From positions 83,662 through 147,661 of the forward strand of contig JBAZJN010000001.1 in the NCBI GenBank assembly GCA_041651295.1: DNA of 64,000 bases. The letters are read 5' to 3'. Under the pieces are notes generated by a model. It was not told the DNA's origin, did no database searches, and saw only the letters and a list, made by a program, of their open reading frames with translations. Every line of letters starts with the position of its first letter. The stretch's first letter is position 1. The translations under genes and the position numbers were made by a program. Positions 7,784-58,420 of this stretch are shown piece by piece. Origin of the DNA: Patescibacteria group bacterium (lineage in GTDB: Bacteria > Patescibacteriota > UBA1384 > XYA2-FULL-43-10 > CAINNR01).

Positions 7784-7972
7784 TCACCCCAGTTCGTGAG
7801 CCATCTGGCTCAATGCGTTGTTTAGCGCGTCACTGATGAATTGCTTCACCTCCGGCAAGAAGGCGACAACCAATGTGACGATGGCTAGGAATATCACAAG
7901 GCAACTGATCTCGATCCGCTCCTCTCCTCTATTCCGACTCGCAGTCTGGTTATCCGTTACACCGTCACGCAT
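7784..7972 (-). CDS. orphan small membrane protein, 62 aa (cassette A, second ORF)
   Basis: GGGAGG SD 8 nt before ATG 7972; TM helix ISCLVIFLAIVTLVVAFL; GC-rich. Confidence 0.45.
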   Translation of the reverse strand: MRDGVTDNQTASRNRGEERIEISCLVIFLAIVTLVVAFLPEVKQFISDALNNALSQMAHELG

Positions 7973-7985
7973 ACCAGGACCTCCC

Positions 7986-8114
7986 TCAAAAGATGTCGGG
8001 TATCCGGACATTGAAGTCGGAATCGAACCATCGGACTATGGTGCCTAACCCACAGCCGGACTTGGGCGGCTGCAGTTCGCGGCTCTGACCATTATCAGCC
8101 ATGGGAGACATCAT
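7986..8114 (-). CDS. possible 42-aa ORF (cassette A, first ORF)
   Basis: AAAGGGGA then ATGATG; MMSPMADNGQSRELQPPKSGCGLGTIVRWFDSDFNVRIPDIF; weak support. Confidence 0.25.
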   Translation of the reverse strand: MMSPMADNGQSRELQPPKSGCGLGTIVRWFDSDFNVRIPDIF

Positions 8115-8129
8115 CCCCTTTCTGCCGCA

Positions 8130-8158
8130 AGTATAGTACAATATGTTGTTTTTATCAA
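8130..8158 (-). promoter_or_regulatory. sigma70-type promoter of cassette A
   Basis: TTGATA-17-TATACT on the minus strand. Confidence 0.45.
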
Positions 8159-8207
8159 TACCCAACCGGTATTTATTGCCTTACCCGGTAAGACCTCATT
8201 GAAATAG

Positions 8208-8891
8208 TTATCTATCCGAACCGGTAGCCGGTAATACCTGAACGGCAGGTGTTGTCTGCGGTACCACCGGAGGATTTGAAACCAGCATACGCACTTGGGT
8301 CGTTGCCTGATAATCTGCATACGCTCGCGGAAACAATAACTTTTCCCACCAAGCGATAAAAATATCGGCTCCGGTAATAGTTACCGTAGCTAAAATTACA
8401 GTTTGATCAGCGGTTCCAGCGGCGATTCTGCCAGTCATCCCTCCGCTCTGAAAACCCGTCGCGTCAGTTGTGCCATTATCAACTCCATCAAGATAAAATG
8501 ACAAGGTTCCGGCATTCATATCAGGCAATCCGCTAAGTCCATAAAATAATATGGCATCGCCGTCTAAGTCATCTGTACTGCCAGAATCAAAAGCGCTGAG
8601 CGCATCCATGCCCGCCGGATTGGTGTAAACACCGGAATATGCAATATTTATCGCAGGGGTATCACCGGTATCCCAGGTTTTTAGGCGGAAATAAACTGTG
8701 TCTCCCGGCGAAACAGTCAGGGTTTGATTGCCAGAATCAGTTTCTGCCAGATAATTGACCCAAGTTGAGTTGTCTTTTGAAACTTCAAGCCGAGTCAACA
8801 ATGTAGCACCGCCGCTAATAAAACCAGCCGACGCAATACTCGGAAACACAGAGAAAACTACTGCCAATAATGCAATAACAACTTTTTTCAT
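8208..8891 (-). CDS. secreted protein, unknown function
   Basis: Signal peptide MKKVVIALLAVVFSVFPSIASA; beta-rich, Thr/Gly-rich body; no recognised motif. Confidence 0.6.
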   Translation of the reverse strand: MKKVVIALLAVVFSVFPSIASAGFISGGATLLTRLEVSKDNSTWVNYLAETDSGNQTLTVSPGDTVYFRLKTWDTGDTPAINIAYSGVYTNPAGMDALSAFDSGSTDDLDGDAILFYGLSGLPDMNAGTLSFYLDGVDNGTTDATGFQSGGMTGRIAAGTADQTVILATVTITGADIFIAWWEKLLFPRAYADYQATTQVRMLVSNPPVVPQTTPAVQVLPATGSDR

Positions 8892-9141
8892 TGTACCCCC
8901 AAATTAATGATTCTTACGAGTATTATATCATAATAACTAGAATCTTTTCTTGTCCCGTTTCACTACTTTAGCTAGGCTTTTTTCTGCTGCTTTATCAAGA
9001 TCAATTTTGTTCGAATTGGCAAAACAAATGAGCGTATAGAGAATATCACCGATTTCCAGTTCCAAATCTTGTTCGGCTTCACTGGATTTCTTTTTCTTCG
9101 GCCCCCAAATGTGATTAACCAGACGGGCAAACTCACCCGTC

Positions 9142-9399
9142 TCATTTCCCTGTTAAATACGACTTGAGCCGCTTGTACAAAAAAAGTTTACCATGATAAG
9201 TTTTAAGATATTTTTCACGTTTAAGAGCATCACTTCGATTTAAACACGCTTCAGAATAGATTAACTTGAGAGGTCGGCGATCCTTAGTTGAGTCAACTCG
9301 CCCTTTAGTATGTAGATCAAGTCGTGATTTCAAATTATTTGTATAACCTGTATAAAATTGACTATCTAGCTTTGATTGTAGAACATAAATATAGAACAT
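9142..9399 (-). CDS. GIY-YIG nuclease domain protein (85 aa)
   Basis: MFYIYVLQS..FYTGYTNNLKSRLDLH..REKYLK matches the GIY-YIG/URI pattern. Confidence 0.8.
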   Translation of the reverse strand: MFYIYVLQSKLDSQFYTGYTNNLKSRLDLHTKGRVDSTKDRRPLKLIYSEACLNRSDALKREKYLKTYHGKLFLYKRLKSYLTGK

Positions 9400-9427
9400 C
9401 TTTTTGAAATCATTTAACAGGGTGAAC
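9144..9427 (-). mobile_element. minimal GIY-YIG element bounded by 11-bp inverted repeats
   Basis: CCCTGTTAAAT (9148-9158) and ATTTAACAGGG (9412-9422) flank an insert of about 280 bp that carries only the GIY-YIG ORF. Confidence 0.5.
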
Positions 9428-9513
9428 CATTAGCCGGACCATCATTTCATGCGGAGTCCAATACTCCCATTTTTGTGCCTTCATCCATTTGTCGAGTTCT
9501 TTTTGCTGCTTGT

Positions 9514-10119
9514 TCATAGTTCTCCTAGAAAATTTACTAATCTCTTATAATTTTTGTAAATGTGTCCTTGACCACCTTTTTGTTCGAATAATTCGATAGT
9601 TTTTGCAGAATCATCAATTAATAAACTGCTCTCAATATTCGAGGCCAATTTCTCTAAAACAATGTCGAATAACATACCGTCTTCATCATCTTTGTTAAGT
9701 TTGTAATCTGCCGAATTTACAATTAAGTCAAACTTTTCATTCAATTTATAATTTGGAACAGTGATCTCTGAAAAAACATCCATGTTGCCAGTCACAATCG
9801 CAACTTTGCTGCCAGATTCTCGAAATGATTCTGCCAAATTGAGTAATCTTCGATCTAATTTCATCAATCGAACACTCTCTTTATATAATTCAGTAAGTGT
9901 TTTGATACCGATATTATTATTCTTAGCAATAAGCTGGTTTATATCCTTAGACGTAACTTCACCATGCATCCATTTATTAACTAATTCGTGATCGGCAAAG
10001 ATGTTTTTCTGTATCCAATCATAAACCTTCAGGTAATCCTGCAATAAAGTTTTTTCATAAAATCTGTCGTGGCAAAGCACACCATCAAAATCAAAAAGAA
10101 TAGTATCTATTTTTTCCAT
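9514..10119 (-). CDS. HAD-superfamily hydrolase
   Basis: ILFDFDGVL motif I and GNMD/DD motifs; stop overlaps the MazG start (ATGA). Confidence 0.75.
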   Translation of the reverse strand: MEKIDTILFDFDGVLCHDRFYEKTLLQDYLKVYDWIQKNIFADHELVNKWMHGEVTSKDINQLIAKNNNIGIKTLTELYKESVRLMKLDRRLLNLAESFRESGSKVAIVTGNMDVFSEITVPNYKLNEKFDLIVNSADYKLNKDDEDGMLFDIVLEKLASNIESSLLIDDSAKTIELFEQKGGQGHIYKNYKRLVNFLGEL

Positions 10120-14025: not shown

Positions 14026-14214
14026 CTACTGCGGGTTAGCTGCCCGCTGCTCGTACGGAGCGATGCTCCCTGTCAGTCTGTTGCCGACGATCACGGACAC
14101 TATCCTGCCGCTAGTCTGACAGATAAGCGCTAGCGGTTCGAACAGAAGTCCTTGTTCGGCCGGCAATGAAGCCGGTGTGCAACAGCACACCGTGATCACT
14201 GCGAGTAGCAGCAA
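14026..14214 (-). CDS. orphan small secreted or lipoprotein-like protein, 62 aa (cassette C2)
   Basis: GGGAGGTG SD 7 nt before TTG; hydrophobic N-terminus MLLLAVITVCCC. Confidence 0.45.
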   Translation of the reverse strand: MLLLAVITVCCCTPASLPAEQGLLFEPLALICQTSGRIVSVIVGNRLTGSIAPYEQRAANPQ

Positions 14215-14304
14215 AGCGTTTCACCTCCCTCCCGCGGGCCGTCGCAGCAAGATTCGCCCGGGTCTTGACCGGATTCTTCTCACTCGACTCCCTGCGACTT
14301 TTTG

Positions 14305-14333
14305 ATATTAGCATATACCTTATTTTTTTGCAA
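14305..14333 (-). promoter_or_regulatory. promoter of cassette C2
   Basis: TTGCAA-17-TAATAT on the minus strand. Confidence 0.45.
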
Positions 14334-14387
14334 ACAAGAAAATCCCCATGGATTTCTGAGCTCAAATATGATAAATTAAATTAGCAA

Positions 14388-14645
14388 ATGAAATATTTTG
14401 TTTACATGATTGAAAATGCCAAAAGCAGACATTACATCGGCATTACCACCGATCCAAAGAGAAGGCTGGCAGAACACAACAATAGCGGTGCTAAATCAAC
14501 CAAACCATTTGGTCCATGGAAATTAATATACTCTGAGGAATTCGAAAACCGATCCGAGGCTTGCAAAAGAGAGTGGCATTTGAAAAATTCCGTTGGCAAA
14601 AAAGAAAAGTCTGAGATAATTGAAAAATTTGGAAATACCAACTAA
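14388..14645 (+). CDS. GIY-YIG nuclease domain protein (85 aa)
   Basis: KYFVYMIEN..HYIGITTDPKRRLAEHN..REWHLK matches the GIY-YIG pattern. Confidence 0.8.
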   Translation: MKYFVYMIENAKSRHYIGITTDPKRRLAEHNNSGAKSTKPFGPWKLIYSEEFENRSEACKREWHLKNSVGKKEKSEIIEKFGNTN

Positions 14646-27357: not shown

Positions 27358-29502
27358 TTATTCAGCTCGTTTCATGAAATCTTTTGTTGAGAGTGCAACC
27401 CGACCCTTTTCCCTATCAACATCAACAACTTTGGCTTTGATGACCTGTCCGACCTTGAGATATTTTTCAATGTCTTCGACGCGTTCCGGTGCAATTTGCG
27501 AAATGTGAATCATACCATCTTGACGCGGTGTGATAGCAACGATGGCACCTACTTGTTTGCCAGTCATTCTGTCGCGTTTGATCTCAATAACTTCGCCTTC
27601 AATGATCTCGCCAACTTCGATTTCTCGTGTTAGTGATTCAACAATTGCAATGGCCTTTTTACCCATTTCCGAGTCTGTTGAACCGATCATCACCGTGCCG
27701 TCGTCCTCAATATCAATAGAAGTAACTTCTTTTCCTCCACAATCTTCAATGATCTTGCGGATAATTTTTCCGCCCGGCCCGATAAGTTCGCCAATTTTCT
27801 CAGGATTGATGTGAATGGCTTTGATCACCGGGGCATATTCAGACAGTTCTTTTCTTGGCTCGGCTATTACCTCGTTCATTGCCTCAAGGATTTCTAACCG
27901 GCCAACGCGGGCCTGCTTGAATGTTTGAACAATAATTTCATCGGTTAAGCCTTCGATTTTGGTATCCATTTGAATTGCGGTGATTCCATCTTTTGTCCCG
28001 GCAATTTTGAAATCCATGTCTCCAGCAAAATCCTCAAGTCCCTGAAGATCGGTTAAAACCTTGAAGTTTGAGACATCATTTTTGTCGGTGATTAATCCCA
28101 TGGCAATTCCAGCAACCGGTTTTTTGATTGGCACGCCCGCATCCATTAAGGCTAGGGTCGAGCCGCAGGTGGCTGCCATCGAAGACGAGCCGTTTGAGGT
28201 CAATATTTCAGTAACCAGTCTGATTGTATACGGAAATTCCTCGGTTGTTGGAATCATTCTGACTAATGCTTTTTCCGCCAAGTATCCATGTCCGATTGCC
28301 CTGCGGCTAACGCCGCGCATCGGCGCAACTTCGCCAGTAGAAAATGGCGGAAAATTGTAGTGGTGCATAAACTTCTTGGTAGTCTCGGTTTCCATGGTAT
28401 CAATAAACTGCTCCATGCCTGGGGAAGCAAGTGTTGCAACTGTTAATGCCTGAGTCTGACCACGAGTGAATAATCCTGAGCCATGAGTCCGCGGCAAAAC
28501 TCCAATTTCAATATCAATTGGTCTGACTTCCTCAATGCCTCGACCATCGGGGCGAACACCATCTTTGAGTATTGCTTCCCGGATTTCTTTCTCGACTAAT
28601 TTACTAAAGGCGGATTTTAGCTCAACTTGCTTGTAATTTCCTTCAAGAGTTTTCAATACCTCTTCTTCGAACTCTTTAAGCTGCTCTTCCCTTTTAATTT
28701 TGTCTAATTCTCTAACGGCCTCTTTTAGTTTTTCGCCGATAATTTTTGAAACCTCGCCGTGAATTTCCTGGTCTTCAATTAGTTCGACACCAGATTCCTC
28801 TTCAACATGTTCTTTTTTGATTTTTGCTTGAATCTCAAGAAGTGGGAGAATCGATTTCTTGGCCAAAGTGATAGCTTCAATAACTTTCGCTTCCGGAACC
28901 TCACTGGCCTCAGCCTCAATCATCATTACCCTGTCTTTTGTAGAAGCAATTGTTAAGTTTAATTCTGACTTTTCGACTTGATCAATGGTTGGATTGGCAA
29001 CTAATTCCCCATCAACTAACGCTATCTTTACTGCGCCAATCGGACCGAGAAATGGCGCCTTGGTCTGCATTAATGCAGTCGAGGCAGCAACCATCCCCAA
29101 AATATCGGGATCATTCTCTCCGTCATATGATAGAACCGTGATAATAATCTGGACATCATTGCGATAATTCTTGGGAAATAACGGCCGGATCGGACGATCG
29201 ATCATCCGGCAAGCAAGGATGGCTGCATCGGACGGTCTGCCTTCTCTTTTGATAAATCTTGAACCGGAAATTTTACCTGCAGCATAAAATCGCTCCTCGT
29301 AATCAACCAGGAGCGGGAAAAAATCAACACCTTCGCGGATTTCATCAGAAACAACAGCGGTTGCCAAAACCACAGTTCCACCGCAGGTCGCTTTTATTGA
29401 TCCCTGCGCTAAAAGCGCCAATTTACCGGTTTCCAGAACCAATTCCCGGCCGCCAAAATCGACCTTGTAGGTCTTTTCTTCTAGTCCCAGTTTCTTAACC
29501 AT
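27358..29502 (-). CDS. pnp: polynucleotide phosphorylase
   Basis: Two RNase PH domains, then KH and S1 domains; start taken at MVKKLGLEEK. Confidence 0.93.
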   Translation of the reverse strand: MVKKLGLEEKTYKVDFGGRELVLETGKLALLAQGSIKATCGGTVVLATAVVSDEIREGVDFFPLLVDYEERFYAAGKISGSRFIKREGRPSDAAILACRMIDRPIRPLFPKNYRNDVQIIITVLSYDGENDPDILGMVAASTALMQTKAPFLGPIGAVKIALVDGELVANPTIDQVEKSELNLTIASTKDRVMMIEAEASEVPEAKVIEAITLAKKSILPLLEIQAKIKKEHVEEESGVELIEDQEIHGEVSKIIGEKLKEAVRELDKIKREEQLKEFEEEVLKTLEGNYKQVELKSAFSKLVEKEIREAILKDGVRPDGRGIEEVRPIDIEIGVLPRTHGSGLFTRGQTQALTVATLASPGMEQFIDTMETETTKKFMHHYNFPPFSTGEVAPMRGVSRRAIGHGYLAEKALVRMIPTTEEFPYTIRLVTEILTSNGSSSMAATCGSTLALMDAGVPIKKPVAGIAMGLITDKNDVSNFKVLTDLQGLEDFAGDMDFKIAGTKDGITAIQMDTKIEGLTDEIIVQTFKQARVGRLEILEAMNEVIAEPRKELSEYAPVIKAIHINPEKIGELIGPGGKIIRKIIEDCGGKEVTSIDIEDDGTVMIGSTDSEMGKKAIAIVESLTREIEVGEIIEGEVIEIKRDRMTGKQVGAIVAITPRQDGMIHISQIAPERVEDIEKYLKVGQVIKAKVVDVDREKGRVALSTKDFMKRAE

Positions 29503-29705
29503 AAGAATCCCTTCTAGAGAGCGTTCGAGGGAAAAAATCACATTGTTAAATTGTTGCGCTCGCTTCGCTCTCTCGTTGTTTTATTGTTCCTGAGCAATTG
29601 AGCAATACAGCAATATAGCAATTTGATTTCTTCGGTCTCGATGATCTCTCTAATTTCCGCCGTAGACCCAAAGGGTCCACTTTGTGACGGAGTTAATATT
29701 TTAAA

Positions 29706-30005
29706 TTACTTCCTAAGCTTCAAATCGGTAATTATGCCGGCATAAGATTTTTCGTTGCTTTTCTTCAAATAGTTTAAAAGTCTTCGGCGCTTGCCAACCA
29801 TTTTTAAAAGTCCAGCTCTGGAATCAAAATCATGCTTGTGCCCCTTCAAATGCTTGGTCAATTCAGCAATTTTTTTTGTTATCACAATAATTTGAACCTC
29901 TGTTGATCCTGTGTCGGTTTCGTGTGTTTGATATTTTGACAAAAGATCACCAGACTTTGCTGGTGTAACTTTTTTAACAACTTTTTTAGTTTCTTTTTCT
30001 ACCAT
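29706..30005 (-). CDS. rpsO: 30S ribosomal protein S15 (short N-terminal extension)
   Basis: TGSTEVQIIVITKKIAELTKHLKGHKHDFDSRAGLLKMVGKRRRLLNYL. Confidence 0.9.
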   Translation of the reverse strand: MVEKETKKVVKKVTPAKSGDLLSKYQTHETDTGSTEVQIIVITKKIAELTKHLKGHKHDFDSRAGLLKMVGKRRRLLNYLKKSNEKSYAGIITDLKLRK

Positions 30006-30081
30006 AGCTACTTTGATTTTTAGCTTTAGAGACTTTTGACTTTATGAACTTATTTGATTGTAACAAACCCTGAGGAAAAAA

Positions 30082-31242
30082 TCAACCTTTTGGTGCTGCT
30101 TTAGGCTGGCCCTTTTGAAAATCACGGATTTTACCGACAATTTTTTCCGTGGTATTGGCCGGGTCATCTCTGGATACAGCAAAGCCGGCAGCCATCGCGT
30201 GGCCGCCGCCGCCAAACAGTTTGGCGATATTAGAGACATCATATCCCCTTTCAACCGATCGGAGTGATCCGTGTAAACCATCAGATTTTTCGGTCAAAAG
30301 CATAACAAAATCGACACCTGTAGTAGTTTTCAAAAGCTCATCAATTACTCCGTCAGCATCAGTTTCGGTAGATTGGGTAACTACAAAATCTGATTTTTCA
30401 ATTTGCGACCAGACAAAACGATAATTCATCTCGTCCCTGATATTCGAAAGAACCCGACCCCAGAGACGAAGGGTGGAAAGAGTCCTGGTTTTGTAAATTT
30501 TCTTGATAATCTCCTGTTGGTCAGCATTGGCGGCGACTAATTGAGCAGCTACGGTTAATGATTTTGGGGTTGTATTTTGGTTTTGAAATGAGTTGGTGTC
30601 AGTGATTATTCCTGTTAACAGGGCGGTAGCAGTCTCCGGTGACAAAAGTGATGTGTCTTTCGCAAGCGCTTCAAATAGCGAGACTAATATCTCTGCGGTT
30701 GAAGTTGCAGTTAAATCTACTAAGTTAATTTTGCCAAAGTGATCATTGCCGGCGTGATGATCAATATTAATGATAGGGGTCTCATAAAAAAGATCTGAGT
30801 TTTGGTGGTACGGTTCGCCCAAACGATCGAGGTCTTGGCAATCGAGAACAATAATTAGGTCAAACTTGAACTTTCCGCCCGGAAAACTAACCATCTCTTG
30901 GCTGAACTCACCCGATTTCGGCGTGACGATAAAATTAATGTGCCCGTCTTCTACTTTATATAGAAATTTCTCAGCCGGAACTTGGCTAACGTCTAGAGAG
31001 ATAACAAAATCCCGTCTGCCTGTTAGATCCTTAGAGACCTTATCTGTCGGTAGAAATGAAAAAACCTGCGAGATACTGCCAGCAGCCACCGGATGGGGAG
31101 TCTTGCCGATTTTTGCCAAAGCTATCGACATGGCTATTAGGGAACCAATAGCATCCCCATCTGGATCTTTATGGGTCAATATCAAAATATTTCCGGCCCC
31201 TTTTATCGCCTCGACAATTTGTTGTTTTGGTGAAAGTTCCAT
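30082..31242 (-). CDS. DHH/DHHA1 phosphoesterase (NrnA-like)
   Basis: DPDGDAIGS, NIDHHAGN and GGGGHAMAAG motifs. Confidence 0.8.
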   Translation of the reverse strand: MELSPKQQIVEAIKGAGNILILTHKDPDGDAIGSLIAMSIALAKIGKTPHPVAAGSISQVFSFLPTDKVSKDLTGRRDFVISLDVSQVPAEKFLYKVEDGHINFIVTPKSGEFSQEMVSFPGGKFKFDLIIVLDCQDLDRLGEPYHQNSDLFYETPIINIDHHAGNDHFGKINLVDLTATSTAEILVSLFEALAKDTSLLSPETATALLTGIITDTNSFQNQNTTPKSLTVAAQLVAANADQQEIIKKIYKTRTLSTLRLWGRVLSNIRDEMNYRFVWSQIEKSDFVVTQSTETDADGVIDELLKTTTGVDFVMLLTEKSDGLHGSLRSVERGYDVSNIAKLFGGGGHAMAAGFAVSRDDPANTTEKIVGKIRDFQKGQPKAAPKG

Positions 31243-31247
31243 AACAC

Positions 31248-31340
31248 AAATGGATAACTAATATTCTAATGGCTAATAACGAATCATACGAATTTGTTTT
31301 ATTAGTTATTGGTTATTCGGTAATTCGTTATCCATTCTTG
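31248..31340. repeat. R3 intergenic repeat, copy b
   Basis: GGATAACTAATATTCTAATGGCTAATAACGAAT..ATTCGGTAATTCGTTATCCATTCTTG. Confidence 0.7.
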
Positions 31341-31383
31341 ATGTGACACTTCAATATATCGGATCATCCTTTCGTTGTCAACA

Positions 31384-31412
31384 TTGACTTTAACCTGCTT
31401 TCCTGCTTAAAT
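31384..31412 (+). promoter_or_regulatory. promoter of cassette F
   Basis: TTGACT-17-TTAAAT. Confidence 0.4.
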
Positions 31413-31443
31413 ACAATCAGTTTCCAGAAATGAGGGAACCATC

Positions 31444-31539
31444 ATGAAGTTGTTGAAGGGTTTTCTAGATGCGGTACTTCTGTCGATTATCCTCATCGTC
31501 GGCTACGTTTTCGGTCTTGAATACGACAACGATGACTGA
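31444..31539 (+). CDS. 31-aa hydrophobic peptide (cassette F)
   Basis: GAGGGA SD 6 nt before ATG; MKLLKGFLDAVLLSIILIVGYVFGLEYDNDD. Confidence 0.4.
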   Translation: MKLLKGFLDAVLLSIILIVGYVFGLEYDNDD

Positions 31540-31615
31540 AGATAGTCACTCGCCGCGACATCCTCTATATGACCCGACTCGACGAAGGTGCTGACCACTA
31601 AGGTCTGGTGCACAA

Positions 31616-31638
31616 CCCGCACTCTGCGGGCTTTTTTT
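31616..31638 (+). terminator. intrinsic terminator of cassette F
   Basis: CCCGC/GCGGG stem followed by T7. Confidence 0.6.
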
Positions 31639-31805
31639 ATCTCGGCAGGAAATGCCTCGATCCCTACATAATTACTAATCGGAACTAAATTACCAATAAT
31701 ACCAACAGGACTTCACAAACCGGTAAATTTCTGTTACACTACAAAAAGTAATTCAGTAATTTTAAATTTTGATTTTTAAACTTTAAATTTGAGCGAAAGC
31801 GAATC

Positions 31806-32117: not shown

Positions 32118-32119
32118 CC

Positions 32120-32178
32120 GTCGTTCCCGCGCAGGCGGGAATCTACTATTAGTGGATCCCCACTTTCGTGGGGATGAC
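32120..32178. repeat. R1 repeat, copy c
   Basis: GTCGTTCCCGCGCAGGCGGGAATCTACTATTAGTGGATCCCCACTTTCGTGGGGATGAC. Confidence 0.8.
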
Positions 32179-32181
32179 AAT

Positions 32182-32221
32182 AAAAAACTGCCTTGATACA
32201 AACTATTGTGGCAGTTTTTTT
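32182..32221. terminator. bidirectional terminator between rpsT and lepB
   Basis: A-run, CTGCC..GGCAG hairpin, T7. Confidence 0.6.
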
Positions 32222-32229
32222 ATTGTCAG

Positions 32230-32867: not shown

Positions 32868-32873
32868 AAAAAA

Positions 32874-34425: not shown

Positions 34426-34575
34426 TCCCCTCCACTCGCCAGAATGGCGAGAATTTTCAATTTAAAATTTTTCCCTGCGGGACCTAAACGGCAATTTAAA
34501 ATAAATGATTTAATTTTTCAAGCATTAAATTTATTTTAAATTTGAGTTTTTAAATTTTAAATTATCTCTATTATA

Positions 34576-35529
34576 CTACATTGTTAAGTCGGCTAACAAT
34601 TTTTCCAAAGCTAATCTTGGTTCGATTTTTCCGGTTTTGATATCAATATCGGTTTGCTGCAGCCGCAAGTAAATTCTTTTAAGCAACGGGAGATCAAAAT
34701 TATTTAGTACTCGGATAGTTTTCCCGACAACGAACGGATGAAGTTCTGCTTCCTTGGCAATCTGGTTTCTCCCAGTCCCGCGGACTATTAAATCTTCCAC
34801 AATGAGCATATTTCTGAATTGATAGACGATCATCGACAGAATATAATTCTCATTTCTGCCGCCCAAAAGTAAGTTCTGTAAATATTTCAATGCCAGCTTG
34901 CCGTTTCTGCCGCCTAGCGCGTCGATGAAGTCAAATATATTTTGATCATGCTCGGTTTCTACCATTTCATCAATATCGGCCTCGGAAATCTGCGTTTGGT
35001 TTTTGGCCAACCGGAAGAGATCAAGTTTTTCAAGCTCGTTAATTAACCGCCATGAGTTGTTACCGGCTGTAACAATTAATTTCTTGATTGCCGGCATAGC
35101 AATCGGAATATTTTTATTTTTAGCTTCCTCTGCTAACCATTTTTCCAACTCATAACCTTTTCTCAAGAGAAAATTTACGATTAGCTTTTCTTTTAATAGT
35201 TTCTTATACAAACCGGACGTTTTTTTGACCTCGCCGTCTTCCTTCAAAATTATTTCCGAAGTATCGGGGAATTTGCCCATATTATTTTCAATGTACTCTT
35301 TGAGTTTTTCATCTCCGTCACGAAATAAATTGCTGATGATTATTAATCGTTTGGGCGCTAAAAATGGAACAGCTGTAACGCTTCTAATCAATTTGTCATA
35401 AGACAATGTTTCCGAATCAAATTTAACAATGTTCATGTCGCCGAAATTGGCGATGGAAAAATCCGCCTCAAGTTTTTTTAAGGAATGGCTTAAGGAATAT
35501 GTGTCTTCGCCGTAGAATAGTTTAATCAT
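34576..35529 (-). CDS. holA: DNA polymerase III delta subunit
   Basis: MIKLFYGEDTYSL start, AAA-like clamp-loader fold pattern, size about 317 aa. Confidence 0.75.
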   Translation of the reverse strand: MIKLFYGEDTYSLSHSLKKLEADFSIANFGDMNIVKFDSETLSYDKLIRSVTAVPFLAPKRLIIISNLFRDGDEKLKEYIENNMGKFPDTSEIILKEDGEVKKTSGLYKKLLKEKLIVNFLLRKGYELEKWLAEEAKNKNIPIAMPAIKKLIVTAGNNSWRLINELEKLDLFRLAKNQTQISEADIDEMVETEHDQNIFDFIDALGGRNGKLALKYLQNLLLGGRNENYILSMIVYQFRNMLIVEDLIVRGTGRNQIAKEAELHPFVVGKTIRVLNNFDLPLLKRIYLRLQQTDIDIKTGKIEPRLALEKLLADLTM

Positions 35530-35530
35530 C

Positions 35531-35559
35531 TTGAAATTTTCCGCTATTACTGTTAACAT
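35531..35559 (+). promoter_or_regulatory. possible promoter of cassette G
   Basis: TTGAAA-17-TAACAT (alternative -10 TAATAT at 35562-35567). Confidence 0.35.
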
Positions 35560-35590
35560 TCTAATATTACAGTCTGCGAGGAGGTGCCAG

Positions 35591-35815
35591 ATGCCATTGC
35601 GAGAAGCCTTGTTGCTGATTTGCCCAATCTTCCTTCTGCCTCCTTCGGCATCTCAATCTCTCGATCTTCGTCCAATGCAGTCGACTCAGATGGTCGACGC
35701 AGACTGCCTTGCCCAACTTGCTTGGCGTTATCGGGCAGAGAACCCAAACCAACCGATTGAAGCTTTTATCGCTTCACATCAATACTACCTTGTCCCATGG
35801 GACATATGTGACTAA
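35591..35815 (+). CDS. orphan small secreted protein, 74 aa (cassette G)
   Basis: GGAGGTG SD 5 nt before ATG; signal-like MPLREALLLICPIFLLPPSASQ. Confidence 0.5.
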   Translation: MPLREALLLICPIFLLPPSASQSLDLRPMQSTQMVDADCLAQLAWRYRAENPNQPIEAFIASHQYYLVPWDICD

Positions 35816-35843
35816 CCCCTGCTTCTCGCCGGGGTCTTTTTTT
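35815..35843 (+). terminator. intrinsic terminator of cassette G
   Basis: ACCCC/GGGGT stem followed by T7. Confidence 0.6.
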
Positions 35844-35880
35844 AATTGCGAAGCGATTAACCCTCCGCAAACTTTCGACT

Positions 35881-37170
35881 TTATAAACTTTTGACTTTCG
35901 CCTTGATCACATTCCTCTTCGCTTCGTCCCAATTATTACCGATGCCAACTTCAACTTCAACCGGCACGCAAAGCTTGACCTCATTTTCCATTACTGATCG
36001 CATTGTTTCCGCAACTTTTGCGGATTGTTTTTCCGGCACTTCAACAATTAATTCGTCGTGGACCGTTAAAAGCATTTTAGCTGACTTCGGTAGTTTTGAT
36101 GATAATTTTATCATCGCCAGTTTCAAAACTTCCGCCGCCGTACCCTGAACCGGAGTGTTAATTGCCATTCTCTGGGCCGACTCATAAACATTTCTATTTG
36201 ATGATTTTATATCCGGAAGTTCTCGGCGGAAACCGAAAAGTGTTTCGACATATCCATGTTTTTTAGCCATAGCAATTTGTTCTTCACAATATCTTTTAAT
36301 GCCTTCGTGCACCTTGAAGTAACGCATAATGTATTCGGCGGCTTTTGATTGCGGGATTCCCAAAGCTTGTGACAAACCATACGGACTTATTCCGTATAGA
36401 ACACCAAAATTTACTGTTTTCGCCAGTCGGCGTTGATCATGAGTAACTTTACCGACAGGAACATCAAAGAGTTCTGAGGCCGTGCGTGAGTGAATATCAA
36501 CACCTGAATCAAAAGCGTCTATCATCGCTTTGTCCGCAGCCAAGCAAGCCACGACCCGTAGTTCTATTTGGGAATAGTCAGCAGAGACTAGCTTGTTTCC
36601 CGGCTCAGCAATAAAGGCTTTGCGAATTTCCGGACCAAAATCTCCACGAATCGGAATATTCTGCAAATTTGGGTTAGATGATGTTAAACGCGAAGTTCTT
36701 GTGTCTTCGCCAAAAGTTGTGTGCAGGCGGGAGTTTTCATCAACTAATTTCGGTAGCGGCTCTAGGTAAGTTGATATTAATTTTGACAGCTCACGATACT
36801 CGAGAATTTTATCAACAATTTTATGTTCTCCGCGAAGTTTCATAAGTTCTGCCGCACCGGTAGAGATACCGGATTTATTGCGTTTAATGTCAACTGTCGG
36901 TAATTTTAGCTTTTTAAATAGAATGTCCGATAATTGTGACGGAGAAGAAACATTAAACTCTTTCCCTGCTAGTTTCTGGATTTCCGATTCTAACTTCTTA
37001 CTTCTTGACCCCAACTTCTTTTGAAGTCGAGACAGCAATTCTATATCTAATTTTATTCCGTTCTTCTCCATTGTCCGCAAAACCGGCGAAACTTCACGGT
37101 CAATATCGCTCCACTTTTTGCGAGGAATTTTGCAACCTAATTTTTCAGCTTTTTTGATGATATTCTTCAT
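35881..37170 (-). CDS. polA: family A DNA polymerase, polymerase domain only
   Basis: Motif A SADYSQIELRV, motif B RRLAKTVNFGVLYG, motif C TVHDE; begins at the thumb region with no 3'-5' exo-like domain. Confidence 0.9.
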   Translation of the reverse strand: MKNIIKKAEKLGCKIPRKKWSDIDREVSPVLRTMEKNGIKLDIELLSRLQKKLGSRSKKLESEIQKLAGKEFNVSSPSQLSDILFKKLKLPTVDIKRNKSGISTGAAELMKLRGEHKIVDKILEYRELSKLISTYLEPLPKLVDENSRLHTTFGEDTRTSRLTSSNPNLQNIPIRGDFGPEIRKAFIAEPGNKLVSADYSQIELRVVACLAADKAMIDAFDSGVDIHSRTASELFDVPVGKVTHDQRRLAKTVNFGVLYGISPYGLSQALGIPQSKAAEYIMRYFKVHEGIKRYCEEQIAMAKKHGYVETLFGFRRELPDIKSSNRNVYESAQRMAINTPVQGTAAEVLKLAMIKLSSKLPKSAKMLLTVHDELIVEVPEKQSAKVAETMRSVMENEVKLCVPVEVEVGIGNNWDEAKRNVIKAKVKSL

Positions 37171-37176
37171 TTCAAT

Positions 37177-37268
37177 AATAGATAACTAATGTTCTAATGA
37201 CTGATAACGAATAGGACAAATGTGTTTTATTGGTTATTTGTTATTCGGTAATTCGTCATCCGTTCTTG
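37177..37268. repeat. R3 intergenic repeat, copy c
   Basis: AGATAACTAATGTTCTAATGACTGATAACGAAT..ATTCGGTAATTCGTCATCCGTTCTTG fills the exo-pol spacer. Confidence 0.7.
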
Positions 37269-38366
37269 TTATAGTAATTTTAATTGTTCGTCTTTCGCGC
37301 TTTGCGCGTCTCGCGAAGTATTATTGCCCAGCGGAGCCTCGGCGGAGTTGGGAGCTACTTGAGATTCACCGCTGGCATCGAAACGTCTCAGTAATGAGTT
37401 AAATCCTAACTCTTCAAATAAATCTTTCAATTTACTTCGATCATACTCGCCCCATTTACAATCTTCAATGCAAAAATCAATTGGAACATCCCTGTGGATC
37501 GTAGCTAATTTTTGCGACATAAAAGCTTGAGTTTGGTTTTCAATTAACAATGTTAGTATTCTTCGACTAATATTCAACTCTTTTGCAGTTTCATCTAGTT
37601 TTCCATTGTTGAATTGCCCCATTGTTGAATTGTTTAGGTCAGCGATAGAACAATTTAGCAATTTAGCAATTTTTTCATACAGCTTCTCCAGTGTATCAAA
37701 CCGCTGTATCAAATCTGTTGCTGTTTTAATACCAACTCCCGGTACACCCGGAATATTGTCAGATGGATCACCGGCTAAAGCCTTAAGATCAATAAAATCC
37801 GATGGATCTAAATTATACTCCCGTTTTATTGCTTCGTGATCGACAATCTGAAGTTGCGATAAACCTTTTTTGAGCGAATAAACAAAAACTTTGCCGTTAA
37901 CCAACTGAAAAATGTCCTTGTCGCCAGAAACTACATATATTTCAATGTCGGTTGATTTCAGCTTCTCGACGACGGTACCAATACAGTCGTCAGCTTCGAA
38001 ACCTTCTTTTTCATAAATTGGAATTTCCATCGCTTCGACAACCTCTTTGACTCTGGGGATTTGATCATAAAGTTCTTGATCGGCCTTAACCCGCGTTGCT
38101 TTGTATTCTTTGAAATGCTCGTGGCGAAAAGTTGGCCCGGCGAGATCAAATGAAGCGGCAATATATTTTGGTTTTAGGTCTTCCAAAACCTTAATGATCG
38201 TAGTCATAAAGCCGTAAATTGCATTGGTTAGCTCACCACGGCGCGTCGACATGTTTTTTGGCAGCGCATGATACGCCCGATGGATGATTGCATTGCCATC
38301 AATCAAAACCAAAACCTCCGGTTTTGTCCCGAGCCTGTTGAGGGATCTACTCCTTACATTTTCCAT
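37269..38366 (-). CDS. 5'-3' exonuclease (FEN-like, PolA N-terminal domain as a separate gene)
   Basis: PIN-like LIDGNAIIHRAYHA, H3TH ALAGDPSDNIPGVPGVGIKTA; carries an extra repeat-derived insert and a C-terminal tail. Confidence 0.88.
   Translation of the reverse strand: MENVRSRSLNRLGTKPEVLVLIDGNAIIHRAYHALPKNMSTRRGELTNAIYGFMTTIIKVLEDLKPKYIAASFDLAGPTFRHEHFKEYKATRVKADQELYDQIPRVKEVVEAMEIPIYEKEGFEADDCIGTVVEKLKSTDIEIYVVSGDKDIFQLVNGKVFVYSLKKGLSQLQIVDHEAIKREYNLDPSDFIDLKALAGDPSDNIPGVPGVGIKTATDLIQRFDTLEKLYEKIAKLLNCSIADLNNSTMGQFNNGKLDETAKELNISRRILTLLIENQTQAFMSQKLATIHRDVPIDFCIEDCKWGEYDRSKLKDLFEELGFNSLLRRFDASGESQVAPNSAEAPLGNNTSRDAQSAKDEQLKLL
37602..37670. repeat. in-frame low-complexity repeat inside the exonuclease gene
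   Basis: CCATTGTTGAATTG twice plus CAATTTAGCAATTTAGCAATT encode KIAKLLNCSIADLNNSTMGQFNNG; related to CAATTGAGCAAT..AGCAAT at about 29590-29625. Confidence 0.5.
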
Positions 38367-38408
38367 AGGCTTATAATAGCACTTTTTGTCCAGATTAGAG
38401 CTATGTAA

Positions 38409-38437
38409 TTGTCAAATTATTATGATTGTGCTAGTAT
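38409..38437 (+). promoter_or_regulatory. promoter of cassette H1
   Basis: TTGTCA-17-TAGTAT; GTGCTAGTATAAA is identical to the -10 region at 63681-63693. Confidence 0.45.
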
Positions 38438-38456
38438 AAAGTCGATCTGAAAGGAG

Positions 38457-39041
38457 TTGGGGCTAATATTAGAACACGTTACGAGCGTTTTCAGAACACT
38501 TCAGGCGCGTCTACTAACAGCACGACCCAACTTGCCAAAGTTCCAGCCGATCGAGTCACTCGCCGGCCATCTGCAGAGCCTGACAGCCCAGGCGATTGAG
38601 AGACACGGCAGGCTTCTGGCCGTCAAAACCGAAGCTGAATTCCAGGCTGGCCTGCTTAGCTTTAAGAAACCCTGCGTTCTGGAAATCGCTTGTCTCCGGC
38701 GGGACCGGATAGTCCAGCCACTCTCTGTTATGGATCGACACCAGACCAATCAGCTTGTCTCATTTTCCGGCCATCGCGACTTCTGCAACGGCTGGGAAAG
38801 GTCCCTACTCAAACTGGAAAACGGCACCGAGGCCCTACATGTGATACTGGGCGGAATCGGCAACGCCAGGAGCACTATTGGCCGAGAACTGCACCAGTTT
38901 GCTTGGAAGACAGAGATTGCTGGTGAGTCTTGCTGTGAGTGGCTACACCATCGCCGCGGGTTGGTTGCCTATACCGATGCCGTTGGCAGCACCTGCACGC
39001 TAGAACTACACTTCTTCGTTTCACAGGGGAGCACGTCCTAG
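38457..39041 (+). CDS. orphan GC-rich protein, about 194 aa (cassette H1); start uncertain
   Basis: AAGGAG directly abuts TTG 38457, so the true start is unclear; no recognised motif. Confidence 0.5.
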   Translation: MGLILEHVTSVFRTLQARLLTARPNLPKFQPIESLAGHLQSLTAQAIERHGRLLAVKTEAEFQAGLLSFKKPCVLEIACLRRDRIVQPLSVMDRHQTNQLVSFSGHRDFCNGWERSLLKLENGTEALHVILGGIGNARSTIGRELHQFAWKTEIAGESCCEWLHHRRGLVAYTDAVGSTCTLELHFFVSQGSTS

Positions 39042-39042
39042 G

Positions 39043-39069
39043 CGGTTCGACAAGAACCGTCATTTTTTT
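39043..39069 (+). terminator. intrinsic terminator of cassette H1
   Basis: CGGTTC/GAACCG stem followed by T7. Confidence 0.6.
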
Positions 39070-39073
39070 GCAA

Positions 39074-39121
39074 GAAAAAAACCTGCCCGCAATGCCATGA
39101 AGCAAAACGATGGCAGGCAGG
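39074..39121 (-). terminator. intrinsic terminator of cassette H2
   Basis: CCTGCCTGCCAT..ATGGCA..GGGCAGG long hairpin with T-run on the minus strand. Confidence 0.6.
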
Positions 39122-39319
39122 CCGCCAGTACGGCGGCGGTGATGCGGTACGACGTTGCGACTCAGCCAGACAGTGGTCTGCGCGACTTCGGTTTGCCGCC
39201 GAGAATAGAAGACCCGTCTCCATGGACACGGTCTCCTGTGGTCCCGGATCTGGGCGCCGGCGGGTGCGGCGAGTGAGGGGCGCGGATTTCCGACGAGGAC
39301 GATGTGTCTCGCTGCATCG

Positions 39320-39436
39320 CTACCATACCGCCTTTATGGCCCAGCCAACCAACAGGCCGGCGACTAATAGTAGAAGCAGAGGGATGCTTCCATGGGCCTC
39401 CAACCCATGGATGCGACCGGGATTGTGCGTTGGCAT
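39320..39436 (-). CDS. 38-aa hydrophobic peptide (cassette H2)
   Basis: CAGGAGG SD 6 nt before ATG 39436; MPTHNPGRIHGLEAHGSIPLLLLLVAGLLVGWAIKAVW. Confidence 0.4.
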   Translation of the reverse strand: MPTHNPGRIHGLEAHGSIPLLLLLVAGLLVGWAIKAVW

Positions 39437-39470
39437 CAGCGACCTCCTGACCAAAACTGAAAGCAAAAAT

Positions 39471-39499
39471 ACTATACAATTTTGAAACATAAAAATCAA
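39471..39499 (-). promoter_or_regulatory. promoter of cassette H2
   Basis: TTGATT-17-TATAGT on the minus strand. Confidence 0.45.
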
Positions 39500-39579
39500 T
39501 CCTTCGACTCGCTCTGCTCGTTCAAGACAAGCTCCCGGCTTTAATAAGGATTGATTTTTCAGATATTAGATATCAGATA

Positions 39580-56746: not shown

Positions 56747-56783
56747 AAAAAAACAAGGGCTCGCCTACTGGCTTGCCCTCTTG
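56747..56783 (-). terminator. intrinsic terminator of cassette J
   Basis: AAGGGC..GCCCT hairpin with T-run on the minus strand. Confidence 0.5.
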
Positions 56784-56805
56784 GACCCTGTTGGGAGGTG
56801 ACCGA

Positions 56806-57294
56806 TTAGGTCACCATTGATCGCGGGCTCGTTACGAAGTCGTACGCTCGACGCCGGGTGTCATCAGGCAGAGACATGTAGTTACCCAGTTCACAGATCA
56901 GCCCGGGATCTCTTAAGCTGCAACTGAATTGTCGGGCCAGATCGATAGTCCCTTCCGGACCATCAATCGATGGAGTAATGTATTCCACGCAGTCAGGATG
57001 TTTGAACCAAACCCTATGCGTCCCGTAGATCATCCAGTTCCGCAGCTCCATGCTAGCGCCCGGATATACCAGCTTCCCATTGCGACCGTTGAGCGGCCAA
57101 CCGTAGATGCCGACACCGAGACGAGTGGCAGCTATCACCATCATATCATGCAGCAGGTCATCGGTCAGGTTCAACTCGCGGGAAAGATCGCGAACCTCAC
57201 GCTCGGTTCGGCATTCGGGGTGATTCACGAACTGCTGCAGCACAAACGCGATGACATCTAGCGCCAGAAAAGCAGACTTGATTTGCCCACTCAT
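56806..57294 (-). CDS. orphan GC-rich protein, 162 aa (cassette J)
   Basis: GTGAGGTG SD 6 nt before ATG 57294; no recognised motif. Confidence 0.55.
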   Translation of the reverse strand: MSGQIKSAFLALDVIAFVLQQFVNHPECRTEREVRDLSRELNLTDDLLHDMMVIAATRLGVGIYGWPLNGRNGKLVYPGASMELRNWMIYGTHRVWFKHPDCVEYITPSIDGPEGTIDLARQFSCSLRDPGLICELGNYMSLPDDTRRRAYDFVTSPRSMVT

Positions 57295-57322
57295 AGCTTT
57301 CACCTCACGGGTTTCTGCTTCC

Positions 57323-57351
57323 AAAATATCTAATTGATAAAATTTAGTCAA
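57323..57351 (-). promoter_or_regulatory. possible promoter of cassette J
   Basis: TTGACT-17-TATTTT on the minus strand. Confidence 0.35.
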
Positions 57352-57469
57352 TCAAAAATCCCCCTGTCTTTACAAATGGCAGCGCGGAAGGGGGGACCGT
57401 GCTGCCATCTTTAATTTACTAAACCAGAGTGCTTTTGTCAAACTGAGCAATAAAAACAAATGGTAAATT

Positions 57470-57535
57470 TAACAATTTATTAATTGGATATTTTTTAGAA
57501 ATTAGTAATTAGGTTAATTAGAAATTGATTTTACT
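57470..57535. repeat. R4 AT-rich intergenic repeat, copy
   Basis: GGATATTTTTTAGAAATTAGTAATTAGGTTAATTAGAAATTG. Confidence 0.5.
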
Positions 57536-58187
57536 TGAACTCTCTTCCCCACAACCGTAAGTCATTATCGGAAATGTAGATTCCCGTGGCCGTCGGAAGT
57601 TTATCCAAACCTTTGTTGATTTTTTTCTTTTGCCAATCCGCAAACTTTTTTTCACATAGGTCTCCGAAGCCGCCGGAAAATACCAGCTCCCAAAACATCC
57701 TACCTATTGAATAGATAATCAAACGATCGAGGGGAAAATCGCGTCTCATAATTTCAAATTGATGGAGATTCCTAACCTCCGGATTGAATTTGCGCATCCA
57801 AAAATTTTGGCGAAGTAATCGCTCATGTTCCCCGCCCCGATCCCAGATTTTGATTGCATAGCGGTTGGCTAACGCATTCGGCCGGTCCTGCGGAAAAATG
57901 TTTAGGCTATCGGAGGTTAAATAATAGTTTAAGCAAAATTGACCGGCAGCAATTTCTGCAAATGGTTTTCTTCGATGGCCGGTGAAGTTGGTAATTAAAG
58001 TTGTGAAAAGGCGGGCAGTATAGAGTCGTTTTGGCGTAGTGATAATTAAAAGATCAATATCACTTTTTTTGCCAGCGCCACCAAAGCTCATTGAGCCATT
58101 AACAATAACCGCCCGAACAAACGGCGCAAGCTGTAGAATGTAACCCAGTCCGCGCAACCGCCTAATTCTTTTTTCGAAATAGTTCAT
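57531..58187 (-). CDS. nucleotidyltransferase-fold protein
   Basis: GSMSFGGAGKKSDIDLLIIT (G-S..DxD pattern); start taken at MNYFEKR. Confidence 0.6.
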   Translation of the reverse strand: MNYFEKRIRRLRGLGYILQLAPFVRAVIVNGSMSFGGAGKKSDIDLLIITTPKRLYTARLFTTLITNFTGHRRKPFAEIAAGQFCLNYYLTSDSLNIFPQDRPNALANRYAIKIWDRGGEHERLLRQNFWMRKFNPEVRNLHQFEIMRRDFPLDRLIIYSIGRMFWELVFSGGFGDLCEKKFADWQKKKINKGLDKLPTATGIYISDNDLRLWGREFK

Positions 58188-58208
58188 TGCCAAAACTCTA
58201 GCACAGAA

Positions 58209-58237
58209 TTGCAAATTTTTTAAATTTCTGTTATTAT
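58209..58237 (+). promoter_or_regulatory. promoter of cassette K1
   Basis: TTGCAA-17-TATTAT. Confidence 0.45.
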
Positions 58238-58273
58238 TCTGTTCATCATATTCCGATTCTGAGGAGGCTCGAT

Positions 58274-58420
58274 GTGGGTTTGAATCTTACAGTTTTAGAT
58301 GGACAAAGGCGTTCTGATCACCGTTTCGCCTCCCGATTCCTGTTCTGGAGCATCATCGTCGTTATCACTATAGTCTGCTTCGTTATACTGCACTACGCAG
58401 GGGGAGATCCGTCCGGGTGA
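58274..58420 (+). CDS. 48-aa hydrophobic peptide (cassette K1)
   Basis: GGAGG SD 6 nt before GTG; ..RFLFWSIIVVITIVCFVILHYAGGDPSG. Confidence 0.4.
   Translation: MGLNLTVLDGQRRSDHRFASRFLFWSIIVVITIVCFVILHYAGGDPSG

Follow-up and report, generated by a model that had tools for sequence, protein, structure and literature searches.

Are the tiny hydrophobic open reading frames (ORFs) that lie in the GC-rich islands of a Patescibacteria group bacterium members of one class, and are they toxins? The question is raised by a stretch of 64,000 nucleotides (nt), called the window here (positions 83,662 to 147,661 of contig JBAZJN010000001.1, assembly GCA_041651295.1; C1:83662-147661 in our numbering), which belongs to a genome of 1.26 Mb with 42% GC in 68 contigs. 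The closest homologues of its PolA protein are named Candidatus Berkelbacteria, a lineage of the candidate phyla radiation (CPR)/Patescibacteria, so that the source is an ultra-small bacterium not yet in culture. In the window, AT-rich core genes are interrupted by GC-rich islands of 0.5-1.6 kb, and an earlier note, made from the sequence alone, described five ORFs of these islands as a class of tiny hydrophobic peptides resembling type I toxins, holin-like peptides or membrane-modulating peptides. All five were found with the coordinates and lengths claimed there, and they are named p1 to p5 (at sites 1 to 5) as follows; lengths are in amino acids (aa), TM stands for transmembrane and SD for Shine-Dalgarno sequence.

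7784-7972, minus strand: p1, ATG start, 62 aa; middle ORF of an operon; predicted single-pass membrane protein (TM residues 22-40, 22-aa C-terminal tail); SD GAGGGAGG
14026-14214, minus strand: p2, TTG start, 62 codons (62 aa); SD GGAGGGAGGTG
31444-31539, plus strand: p3, ATG start, 31 aa; basic N-terminus, TM stretch, acidic tail
39320-39436, minus strand: p4, ATG start, 38-aa candidate ORF, orphan; SD GGAGG, C-terminal TM stretch
58274-58420, plus strand: p5, GTG start, 48-aa predicted single-pass membrane protein; N-terminal xLNLxVxDGxR, basic linker, TM helix

The five ORFs probably represent as many independent small-protein genes, unrelated to one another and differing greatly in age, and they are not shown to be toxins. 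By comparative evidence from sequences of relatives, p1, p2, p3 and p5 are taken to be genuine small-protein genes: in each of these four the frame is kept, indels are in frame, and the ratio of nonsynonymous to synonymous substitution rates (dN/dS) lies below 1 in the coding frame only. The families of p5 and p2 are new, unnamed and kept across genera, and p1, p3 and p4 lie in strain- or species-specific cassettes at variable intergenic sites, some of which are eroding in this strain. Each ORF would be expressed from a short sigma-70-type transcription unit with a strong SD, which most ordinary genes of the genome lack.

Five unrelated ORFs with strong translation signals

Full GGAGG is present 5-9 nt ahead of the start in four of the five ORFs, whereas only 5-13% of the 963 long ORFs of the genome have GGAGG at their longest start. 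For ORFs below 50% GC over the whole genome, an upper bound of 9-18% was obtained; the genome rarely uses strong SD sites, and those present cluster on the small genes of the cassettes. All five peptides contain at least 10 hydrophobic residues in 15, the criterion of Fozo et al. (2010; PMC2887945). When the whole window was filtered on both strands for ORFs of 25-80 codons with an SD-like motif at most 16 nt from the start and a mean hydropathy of at least 2.0 in a 17-residue window, the five ORFs and only one other were returned. The same filter gave four ORFs in the 9.8 kb of intergenic DNA, p4 being the fifth, masked by a spurious 105-codon ORF, and 300 dinucleotide shuffles gave 0.09 +/- 0.30 such ORFs (maximum two). 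A chance origin of this set of ORFs with an SD and a hydrophobic stretch is therefore excluded.

The description of these units in the earlier note had to be revised in part. Its statement that each ORF has its own promoter, a GGAGG-type SD and a terminator fails for p1, which shares the promoter and terminator of an operon. The picture of a product dominated by one hydrophobic helix does not suit p2, in which only the first ~19 residues are hydrophobic; most of the five have one predicted membrane-spanning stretch. It was also thought that automated annotation would miss three of the ORFs, but p1, p3 and p4 are all predicted as genes in public annotation. The exact 62-aa form of p2 and the 48- and 46-aa forms of p5, which have non-ATG starts, were absent from the public protein collection in which they were looked up. 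In agreement with the earlier note, no similarity to named families was detected in Pfam, NCBIfam and PHROG searches, and the comparative test of frame conservation that it proposed turned out positive in diverged homologues of p1, p2, p3 and p5.

That the five form a class is not supported by the data. Searches by tblastn with each peptide against the whole 1.26-Mb genome returned only the query itself, without cross-matches among the five, and a repeat search found no repeated units; a shared family was rejected on these grounds, no paralogues being present. Conservation ranges from an orphan (p4) over genes limited to a strain or species (p1 and p3) to families found across genera (p2 and p5), one member belongs to an operon (p1) and one to a non-membrane family (p2).

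The islands themselves were examined for other causes. In an Rfam search of the window, a tRNA-Ser was the sole match even at E-values up to 5, so rRNA genes, introns or other known RNAs were rejected as the cause of the GC-rich islands; the Rfam 15 covariance models likewise matched none of the five units, at the gathering threshold or at E up to 5. Because Logan and ENA assemblies, made independently, match the window at 100% identity across sites 1-4, the junctions at these sites are not assembly artefacts, and an assembly chimera was rejected.

Two families kept across genera

The existence of the units, the conservation of their reading frames, purifying selection and synteny were observed directly in the comparisons below, whereas membrane insertion, topology and function of the peptides are predicted from the sequences. 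The unit of p5 consists, apart from the ORF, of two elements.

58209-58237, plus strand: promoter, TTGCAA-17-TATTAT with TG; a divergent nucleotidyltransferase-like gene has its promoter back to back with it
58414-58438, plus strand: terminator, overlapping the stop codon

Homologues of p5 were recognized in two contigs of JGI metagenomes (L004 and L005, both 45 aa) and in two genomes (G003, 51 aa; G004, 45 aa), with identical synteny throughout. In L004 and L005, the protein of the flanking gene is 91-92% identical to that of the window, and the entire p5 unit is retained, with promoter, SD, ATG where the window has GTG, an ORF of 45 codons and a terminator overlapping the stop. The ORF of the window shows only 44-45% nt identity to these two copies, and the architecture of the protein is kept: MG(F/L)NLT..DG.R, basic linker, TM helix and PSG before the stop, with one Ser codon written TCC in one sequence and AGC in the other. 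The copies of G003 and G004, which belong to two other genera of the same family, were found when six-frame translations of 162 class genomes were searched with a profile; they too are divergent from the nucleotidyltransferase-like gene and have their own SD and terminator. Thus, all five homologous units (three genera) retain promoter, SD, start, an ORF of 45-51 codons and a terminator, which stands in the same place, and in all of them the neighbour is a 227-aa nucleotidyltransferase-like gene, always divergent. The coding frame has zero stops in all five sequences, and the other frames have 1-7. In five further genera of the family the neighbouring gene is present and no p5 is recognisable.

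In short, p5 is a real, old, single-copy and monocistronic gene for a small membrane protein, and its single copy and its synteny, fixed across three genera, are the behaviour of a housekeeping small membrane protein. To judge from its sequence features it is almost certainly translated. A profile of the family matched only two proteins, both of 45 aa and already known, among 1.84 billion representative proteins, and the window, G003 and G004 forms that were looked up were not found in public protein sets. A single-pass N-in, C-out topology is suggested by the sequence, since the N-terminal side bears a net charge between +2 and +8 and no more than 5-8 residues follow on the C-terminal side. 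The protein would then carry a conserved cytoplasmic head followed by a basic stretch, and may assist or regulate a membrane protein as its small partner.

Two other explanations of the p5 unit were rejected. A role as the leader peptide of the downstream 208-aa gene is incompatible with the conserved terminator and separate promoter that lie between them and with the lack of the downstream gene in G003 and G004. An overlap of the p5 mRNA with that of the divergent gene is not expected, the promoters being back to back.

The second family, that of p2, combines a conserved reading frame with conserved RNA structure. Its unit includes the following elements.

14305-14333, minus strand: promoter, TTGCAA-17-TAATAT with extended -10 TG, in a block conserved across genera beside a tRNA-Ser gene
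14236-14292, minus strand: conserved stem-loop of the 5' leader, with three pairs changed on both sides between the window and contig L017
13984-14012, minus strand: terminator, with two compensatory pairs relative to L017

Contig L017, which was reached via a member of the rubrerythrin cluster, comes from another species (core genes ~75-77% nt identity). It keeps the p2 unit beside the same GIY-YIG gene, and its neighbouring cassette gene is unrelated to that of the window (132 aa versus 151 aa). Conservation covers the -10 region, the stem-loop of the leader, GGAGGGAGGTGAAAC with the TTG start after it, the 30 nt at the 3' end of the ORF, and the terminator; within the ORF body nt identity is ~50%, and the frame remains open (61 versus 62 codons). 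The consensus fold contains six pairs in which both bases have changed (three within the stem-loop of the leader, two within the terminator), and the whole transcript folds with z = -3.5.

In genus g7 (genomes G010 and G011), the same promoter block by tRNA-Ser drives a distant homologue of p2 (79 and 63 codons), preceded by the SD GGGAGGG, with ATC as the only candidate start. Its C-terminus is related to that of p2 (..EQRAANPQ versus ..QQ..VANPDD), dN/dS between G010 and G011 is 0.32, and the two differ by an in-frame indel of 6 nt. The coding frame is free of stops in all four sequences, and the other frames have 0-5 stops. Because the G010 and G011 proteins lack a hydrophobic helix (9 of 15 residues hydrophobic), the family is not one of membrane peptides. 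Its members are small proteins whose structured mRNA combines a very strong SD with a weak start (TTG or ATC), and sequence comparison makes translation of p2 very likely. Translation would probably be limited by the mRNA fold together with the weak start. A lipoprotein nature of p2 was considered and rejected: its ITVC box departs from the canonical form, and L017, G010 and G011 lack the Cys.

The block of ~70 nt that contains the p2 promoter (window 14297-14400; also in L017 and in L020 and L021, from G011 and G010, respectively) is 94% conserved across genera and is located by tRNA-Ser. In the window, the GIY-YIG gene and an ORF of 142 aa lie between the block and tRNA-Ser, and in G010 a serine recombinase gene is located just past the tRNA-Ser gene.

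ORFs of strain- or species-specific cassettes

At site 1, p1 is the middle gene of an operon, the other elements of which are listed here.

8130-8158, minus strand: operon promoter, TTGATA-17-TATACT, 100% identical in the sister-strain contig L015
7986-8114, minus strand: p0, first ORF, 42 aa; the sister allele has 64-67 aa, including a TM helix
7603-7779, minus strand: p1b, third ORF, 58 aa, against 120 aa for the sister allele
about 7449-7479, minus strand: operon terminator, stem 7472-7460 followed by a T run; in the sister the stem is kept and the loop differs

The sister-strain contig (L015, JGI 3300014204) was reached via the protein cluster of a neighbouring 227-aa protein, and the transcript start of the operon is identical in it. 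The sister homologue of p1 has 60 aa and is 77% identical, with indels of 12, 3 and 9 nt, all in frame; with a dN/dS of 0.21, p1 is under purifying selection. In p0 of the window, in-frame deletions of 69 and 9 nt have removed the TM helix (dN/dS 0.51), and p1b has suffered an in-frame deletion of 90 nt and a 1-nt frameshift that cuts off a still-recognisable tail (dN/dS 0.23). All seven indels within the ORFs of the operon are multiples of three, the frameshift of p1b being the sole exception. The long allele is protein-identical in a second metagenome (L066, JGI 3300035208); since it is the same in two independent metagenomes, the window carries an eroded form. Searches for p1 in the 162 class genomes and in viral contigs gave no homologue, and neither did searches for p1b in contigs of genomes and viruses. 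We have little doubt, on the sequence evidence, that p1 is translated, and it would be the intact middle gene of a strain-variable three-gene operon of which the allele in the window is eroding.

It is highly improbable that p1 is a prepilin of the Flp type (type IVb, Tad-like), in which the prepilin peptidase would cut a leader of 11-16 residues after Gly to leave a mature protein of ~46 aa with Glu at +5 and a hydrophobic helix. The sequence of p1 does read RG/EERIE and then 18 hydrophobic residues, the in-frame indels between the alleles fall within the putative leader, a peptidase A24 homologue above the Pfam cut-off is encoded in the genome (contig C9), and the sister p1 weakly matches Pfam Flp1_like (E = 0.0029). 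However, that match reaches 17.5 bits against a cut-off of 33.5 and is confined to the sister, the p1 of the window having none; cleavage after G16 would place Glu at +1, and the first four mature residues would be charged, which is atypical. A PDB profile search returned no pilin, and the neighbours of p1 are dnaG and the secreted 227-aa protein, tad/pil genes not being adjacent. The preferred reading of p1 thus remains that of a small membrane protein of an operon.

Several differences were noticed around the operon. Between p1b and dnaG, the sister contig has two extra genes that are absent from the window (L015 2241-3596; a 212-aa orphan and a 206-aa thymidylate-kinase-like gene), and the MazG-like gene is intact in the sister (99 aa; L015 204-503 versus window 8937-9517). 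The secreted 227-aa protein beside the operon (8208-8891, minus strand) ends in ..VLPATGSDR, which is LPxTG-like without the usual hydrophobic anchor after it.

At site 3, p3 is flanked by two signals.

31390-31417, plus strand: promoter-like site, TTAACC-16-TACAAT, with TTGACT at 31384 just upstream; the sister differs at one base
31616-31638, plus strand: terminator, identical in the sister

The sister contig for this region (L008) is 95.8% identical overall, and the flanks of p3 are nearly identical in it, while the ORF forms a patch of 70% nt identity and has 51 codons in L008. Over the first 31 codons the two copies align gap-free and share 15 residues, and dN/dS is 0.40 in the coding frame, compared with 0.55 and 1.7 in the two other frames; the copy of the window stops early, and the Cys-containing tail of the sister is out of frame in the window. 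Among relatives with PolA 76-78% identical, L010 has nothing at the site and L011 and L012 have an unrelated gene of 149 aa there, and no homologue of p3 was found elsewhere in the class. On these sequence comparisons its translation is regarded as highly probable, and p3 would represent a young, species-limited membrane peptide, encoded in a cassette at a variable intergenic hot spot and truncated in this strain.

Hypervariation of the diversity-generating-retroelement (DGR) type at p3 was rejected: the substitutions are of every kind, and the mosaic pattern occurs everywhere, in core genes too (63-88%). Because patches of 63-88% identity also exist in core genes, the p3 patch is not special.

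Comparison of window 27894-39142 with L008 gave a mosaic in which long stretches of 100% identity alternate with patches of 63-88%, and low-identity patches were also recognized inside polA (36900-37100) and the DHH gene (30500-31100). The mosaic suggests either frequent homologous recombination among diverged strains or consensus contigs made from strain mixtures.

At site 4, the unit of p4 includes the following.

39471-39499, minus strand: promoter, TTGATT-17-TATAGT
39075-39319, minus strand: GC-rich 3' stretch of ~240 nt, untranslated, plus terminator

The ORF is placed ideally behind its signals (GGAGG, 7 nt, ATG; ~30 nt past the promoter) and occupies 117 nt of a predicted transcript of ~390 nt. 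In the sister, the 194-aa neighbour gene and both terminators are ~99% conserved, identity collapses from window 39142, and conservation is confined to the last ~65 nt of the 3' stretch plus the terminator; each of the two sister contigs breaks off 80 nt past this collapse, short of p4. No contig covering p4 was found with the 568-aa anchor and the sister's 191-aa protein, the sister copy of the flanking 568-aa gene is not in the protein database, and a NUDIX anchor search yielded no sister contig. In other species the site is empty or contains a PIN gene together with a 53-aa gene. No homologue of p4 was found in the 162 genomes, and its protein cluster is a singleton. Its signals make translation of p4 rather likely, and it would be an orphan of the same design as the others (short unit, strong SD, TM stretch).

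The orphan state of p4, the small share of its ORF in the transcript and the divergence of the sister within the unit would also suit a non-coding structured RNA in which the ORF is a chance product of GC-rich sequence. The same could be proposed, with less probability, for p2, of which the transcript folds significantly better than shuffles and shows its strongest nt conservation outside the ORF body, namely in leader, SD region and 3' hairpin. This explanation is quite improbable, however: Rfam gave no match to either unit, even at E up to 5; p4 has the ideal spacing of SD and ATG, and ORFs with an SD and a TM stretch are ~50 times rarer in shuffles; and four diverged homologues all keep the p2 frame open, differ in length by whole codons and, between G010 and G011, show a low dN/dS. 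A small-protein gene is the reading kept for p2 and, with more reserve, for p4.

A perfect inverted repeat of 14 nt (39491-39504 and 39546-39559, with a 41-nt spacer) overlaps the -35 box of p4; it is probably the terminator of the upstream 568-aa gene.

Several points weigh against the reading of the five ORFs as small-protein genes other than toxins. The dN/dS values of p5 (0.48), p2 versus L017 (0.64) and p3 (0.40) come from alignments of 31-61 codons and are near saturation. The starts of p2 are all non-ATG, the ATC of G010 and G011 being putative, and the strong conservation of its leader and 3' hairpins means an RNA-level constraint beyond coding. In the window, p0, p1b and p3 are truncated relative to the sister, and parts of the cassettes may be decaying rather than functional. 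For p4 there is no comparator, and the layout of p3 (basic N-terminus, TM stretch, acidic tail) is Fst-like. Finally, transcription, translation and the absence of antisense RNAs were all read from sequence.

The toxin question and known systems

The criteria used for type I toxins (Fozo et al. 2010; PMC2887945) are a size below 70 aa, a TM region, a polar C-terminal tail, an antisense small RNA and occurrence in tandem. Tandem or multiple copies are frequent in such systems and not obligatory. All five peptides of the window are shorter than 70 aa and have a TM-like stretch, which in p2 is the N-terminal segment only. The C-terminal tails differ widely: EYDNDD in p3, in keeping with a polar tail, an amphipathic tail of 22 aa in p1, KAVW in p4 and 5-8 residues in p5, so that p4 and p5 have almost no tail. 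Models of Hok/Gef, Ldr, Fst, TisB, Ibs, ShoB, TxpA and other toxins matched none of the peptides or their homologues (Pfam with E up to 0.1, NCBIfam and PHROGs). Sequence scans for antisense promoters and terminators found none over any ORF or leader, bar a weak AT-rich match near p3, and no direct or inverted repeats able to encode a trans-acting antitoxin exist within ~1.5 kb. A type I toxin reading, as suggested in the earlier note, is thus unsupported by the sequence: there are no tandem or multiple copies and no match to a toxin family, and the scans gave no antisense promoter or terminator beyond that weak match and no complementary neighbour. Its alternative of holin-like peptides fared no better, as no PHROG or Pfam holin was matched and only core genes or orphans, none of them a lysin, lie beside the ORFs.

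Some of the units (p3, p4 and possibly p2) might nevertheless be type I toxin-antitoxin (TA) loci, in which a membrane-damaging peptide is silenced by mRNA folding and an unrecognised antisense RNA. Besides the size and TM-like stretch of all five peptides, this would account for the basic N-terminus, TM stretch and acidic tail of p3, by its predicted protein features the most Fst-like of the five, and for its presence or absence among close relatives; for the folded p2 mRNA with its covarying leader stem-loop, partly paired SD and weak start; and for the structured 3' untranslated region of 240 nt in p4. A weak minus-strand promoter-like site (31787-31759) could also read antisense through p3. 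We consider this improbable, since the sequence searches gave no overlapping antisense promoter or terminator (the weak AT-rich match apart), no repeat within ~1.5 kb, no tandem or dispersed copy and no toxin-family match (Pfam, NCBIfam and PHROG), the G010 and G011 homologues of p2 have no hydrophobic helix, the synteny of p5 is fixed over three genera and p1 is a member of an operon. Unrelated small-protein genes therefore remain the preferred reading. In comparison with Hok/Sok, Ldr/Rdl, Fst/RNA II, TisB/IstR-1 and Ibs/Sib, the likeness lies in peptide size, hydrophobicity and intergenic location, in the polar or charged C-terminal tail of p3 and in the folded p2 mRNA with its partly paired SD. 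The difference lies in the lack of any detected gene for an antisense or complementary RNA, of tandem duplication and of toxin homology, and in the cross-genus synteny of p5, the operon of p1 and the non-hydrophobic p2 family. If any unit were a TA module after all, which is a minority reading, it would be the first in the CPR.

The five ORFs can also be compared with the small membrane proteins of bacteria, encoded by small ORFs of about 70 codons or fewer (reviewed in PMC10730256). They share with these a length of 31-62 aa, one membrane-spanning stretch, an SD of their own, often a promoter and terminator of their own, and the frequent lack of annotation, and p5 resembles a conserved single-copy accessory peptide. 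Well-known examples are AcrZ, KdpF, CydX and MgrB. The ORFs of the window are different from the described proteins in that they show no sequence kinship to them, are GC-richer than the surrounding CPR genome and in several cases lie in cassettes of fast turnover. The autonomous promoter-gene-terminator inserts of phages are known as morons. The p3 and p4 units and the p0-p1-p1b operon are likewise self-contained, are located between core genes and occupy sites that are empty or carry other cargo in relatives; however, there is no prophage context and no PHROG match, and a recent insertion does not apply to p5 and p2, which different genera carry at one and the same site.

No part of bacterial proteomes is charted less well than the small proteins, and to our knowledge almost nothing is known of them in the ultra-small CPR bacteria. 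The present analysis adds at least two conserved, unnamed families (p5 and p2), separates real micro-genes from chance ORFs by comparison at the strain level, and tempers the labelling of every small hydrophobic ORF as a type I toxin. A wider generalization is speculative and, on balance, unlikely: that Patescibacteria as a whole have a habit of autonomous micro-genes with a strong SD, many of them for membrane peptides, which are gained, diversified and eroded at fixed intergenic hot spots. In such a habit, a p2- and p3-like subset, with folded leader, partly paired SD, weak start and Fst-like peptide, might represent the first type I toxin-like modules of the CPR, and p5 an old membrane subunit, domesticated and fixed.

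The intergenic sites 31243-31805 and 38367-39579 are variable hot spots. Both are empty in L010, and L011 and L012 hold a 149-aa gene and a PIN-domain gene at the two sites, the PIN gene of L012 being paired with an ORF of 53 aa (VapBC-like). In L011, from a related Berkelbacteria genome, a bAvd-like gene and a reverse transcriptase gene (DGR-like) are located at 3559-4926, a few kb from polA. Contig L003 of another strain (JGI 3300035208) begins exactly at the p3 terminator (window 31630), and L008 and L009 end at the same point inside the p4 unit; such assembly breaks at the cassettes suggest strain heterogeneity there. Near p5, a stretch at 56765-57333, which contains a GC-rich ORF of 181 aa (56806-57351), does not align with L004 1443-1986 and may be a further variable cassette.

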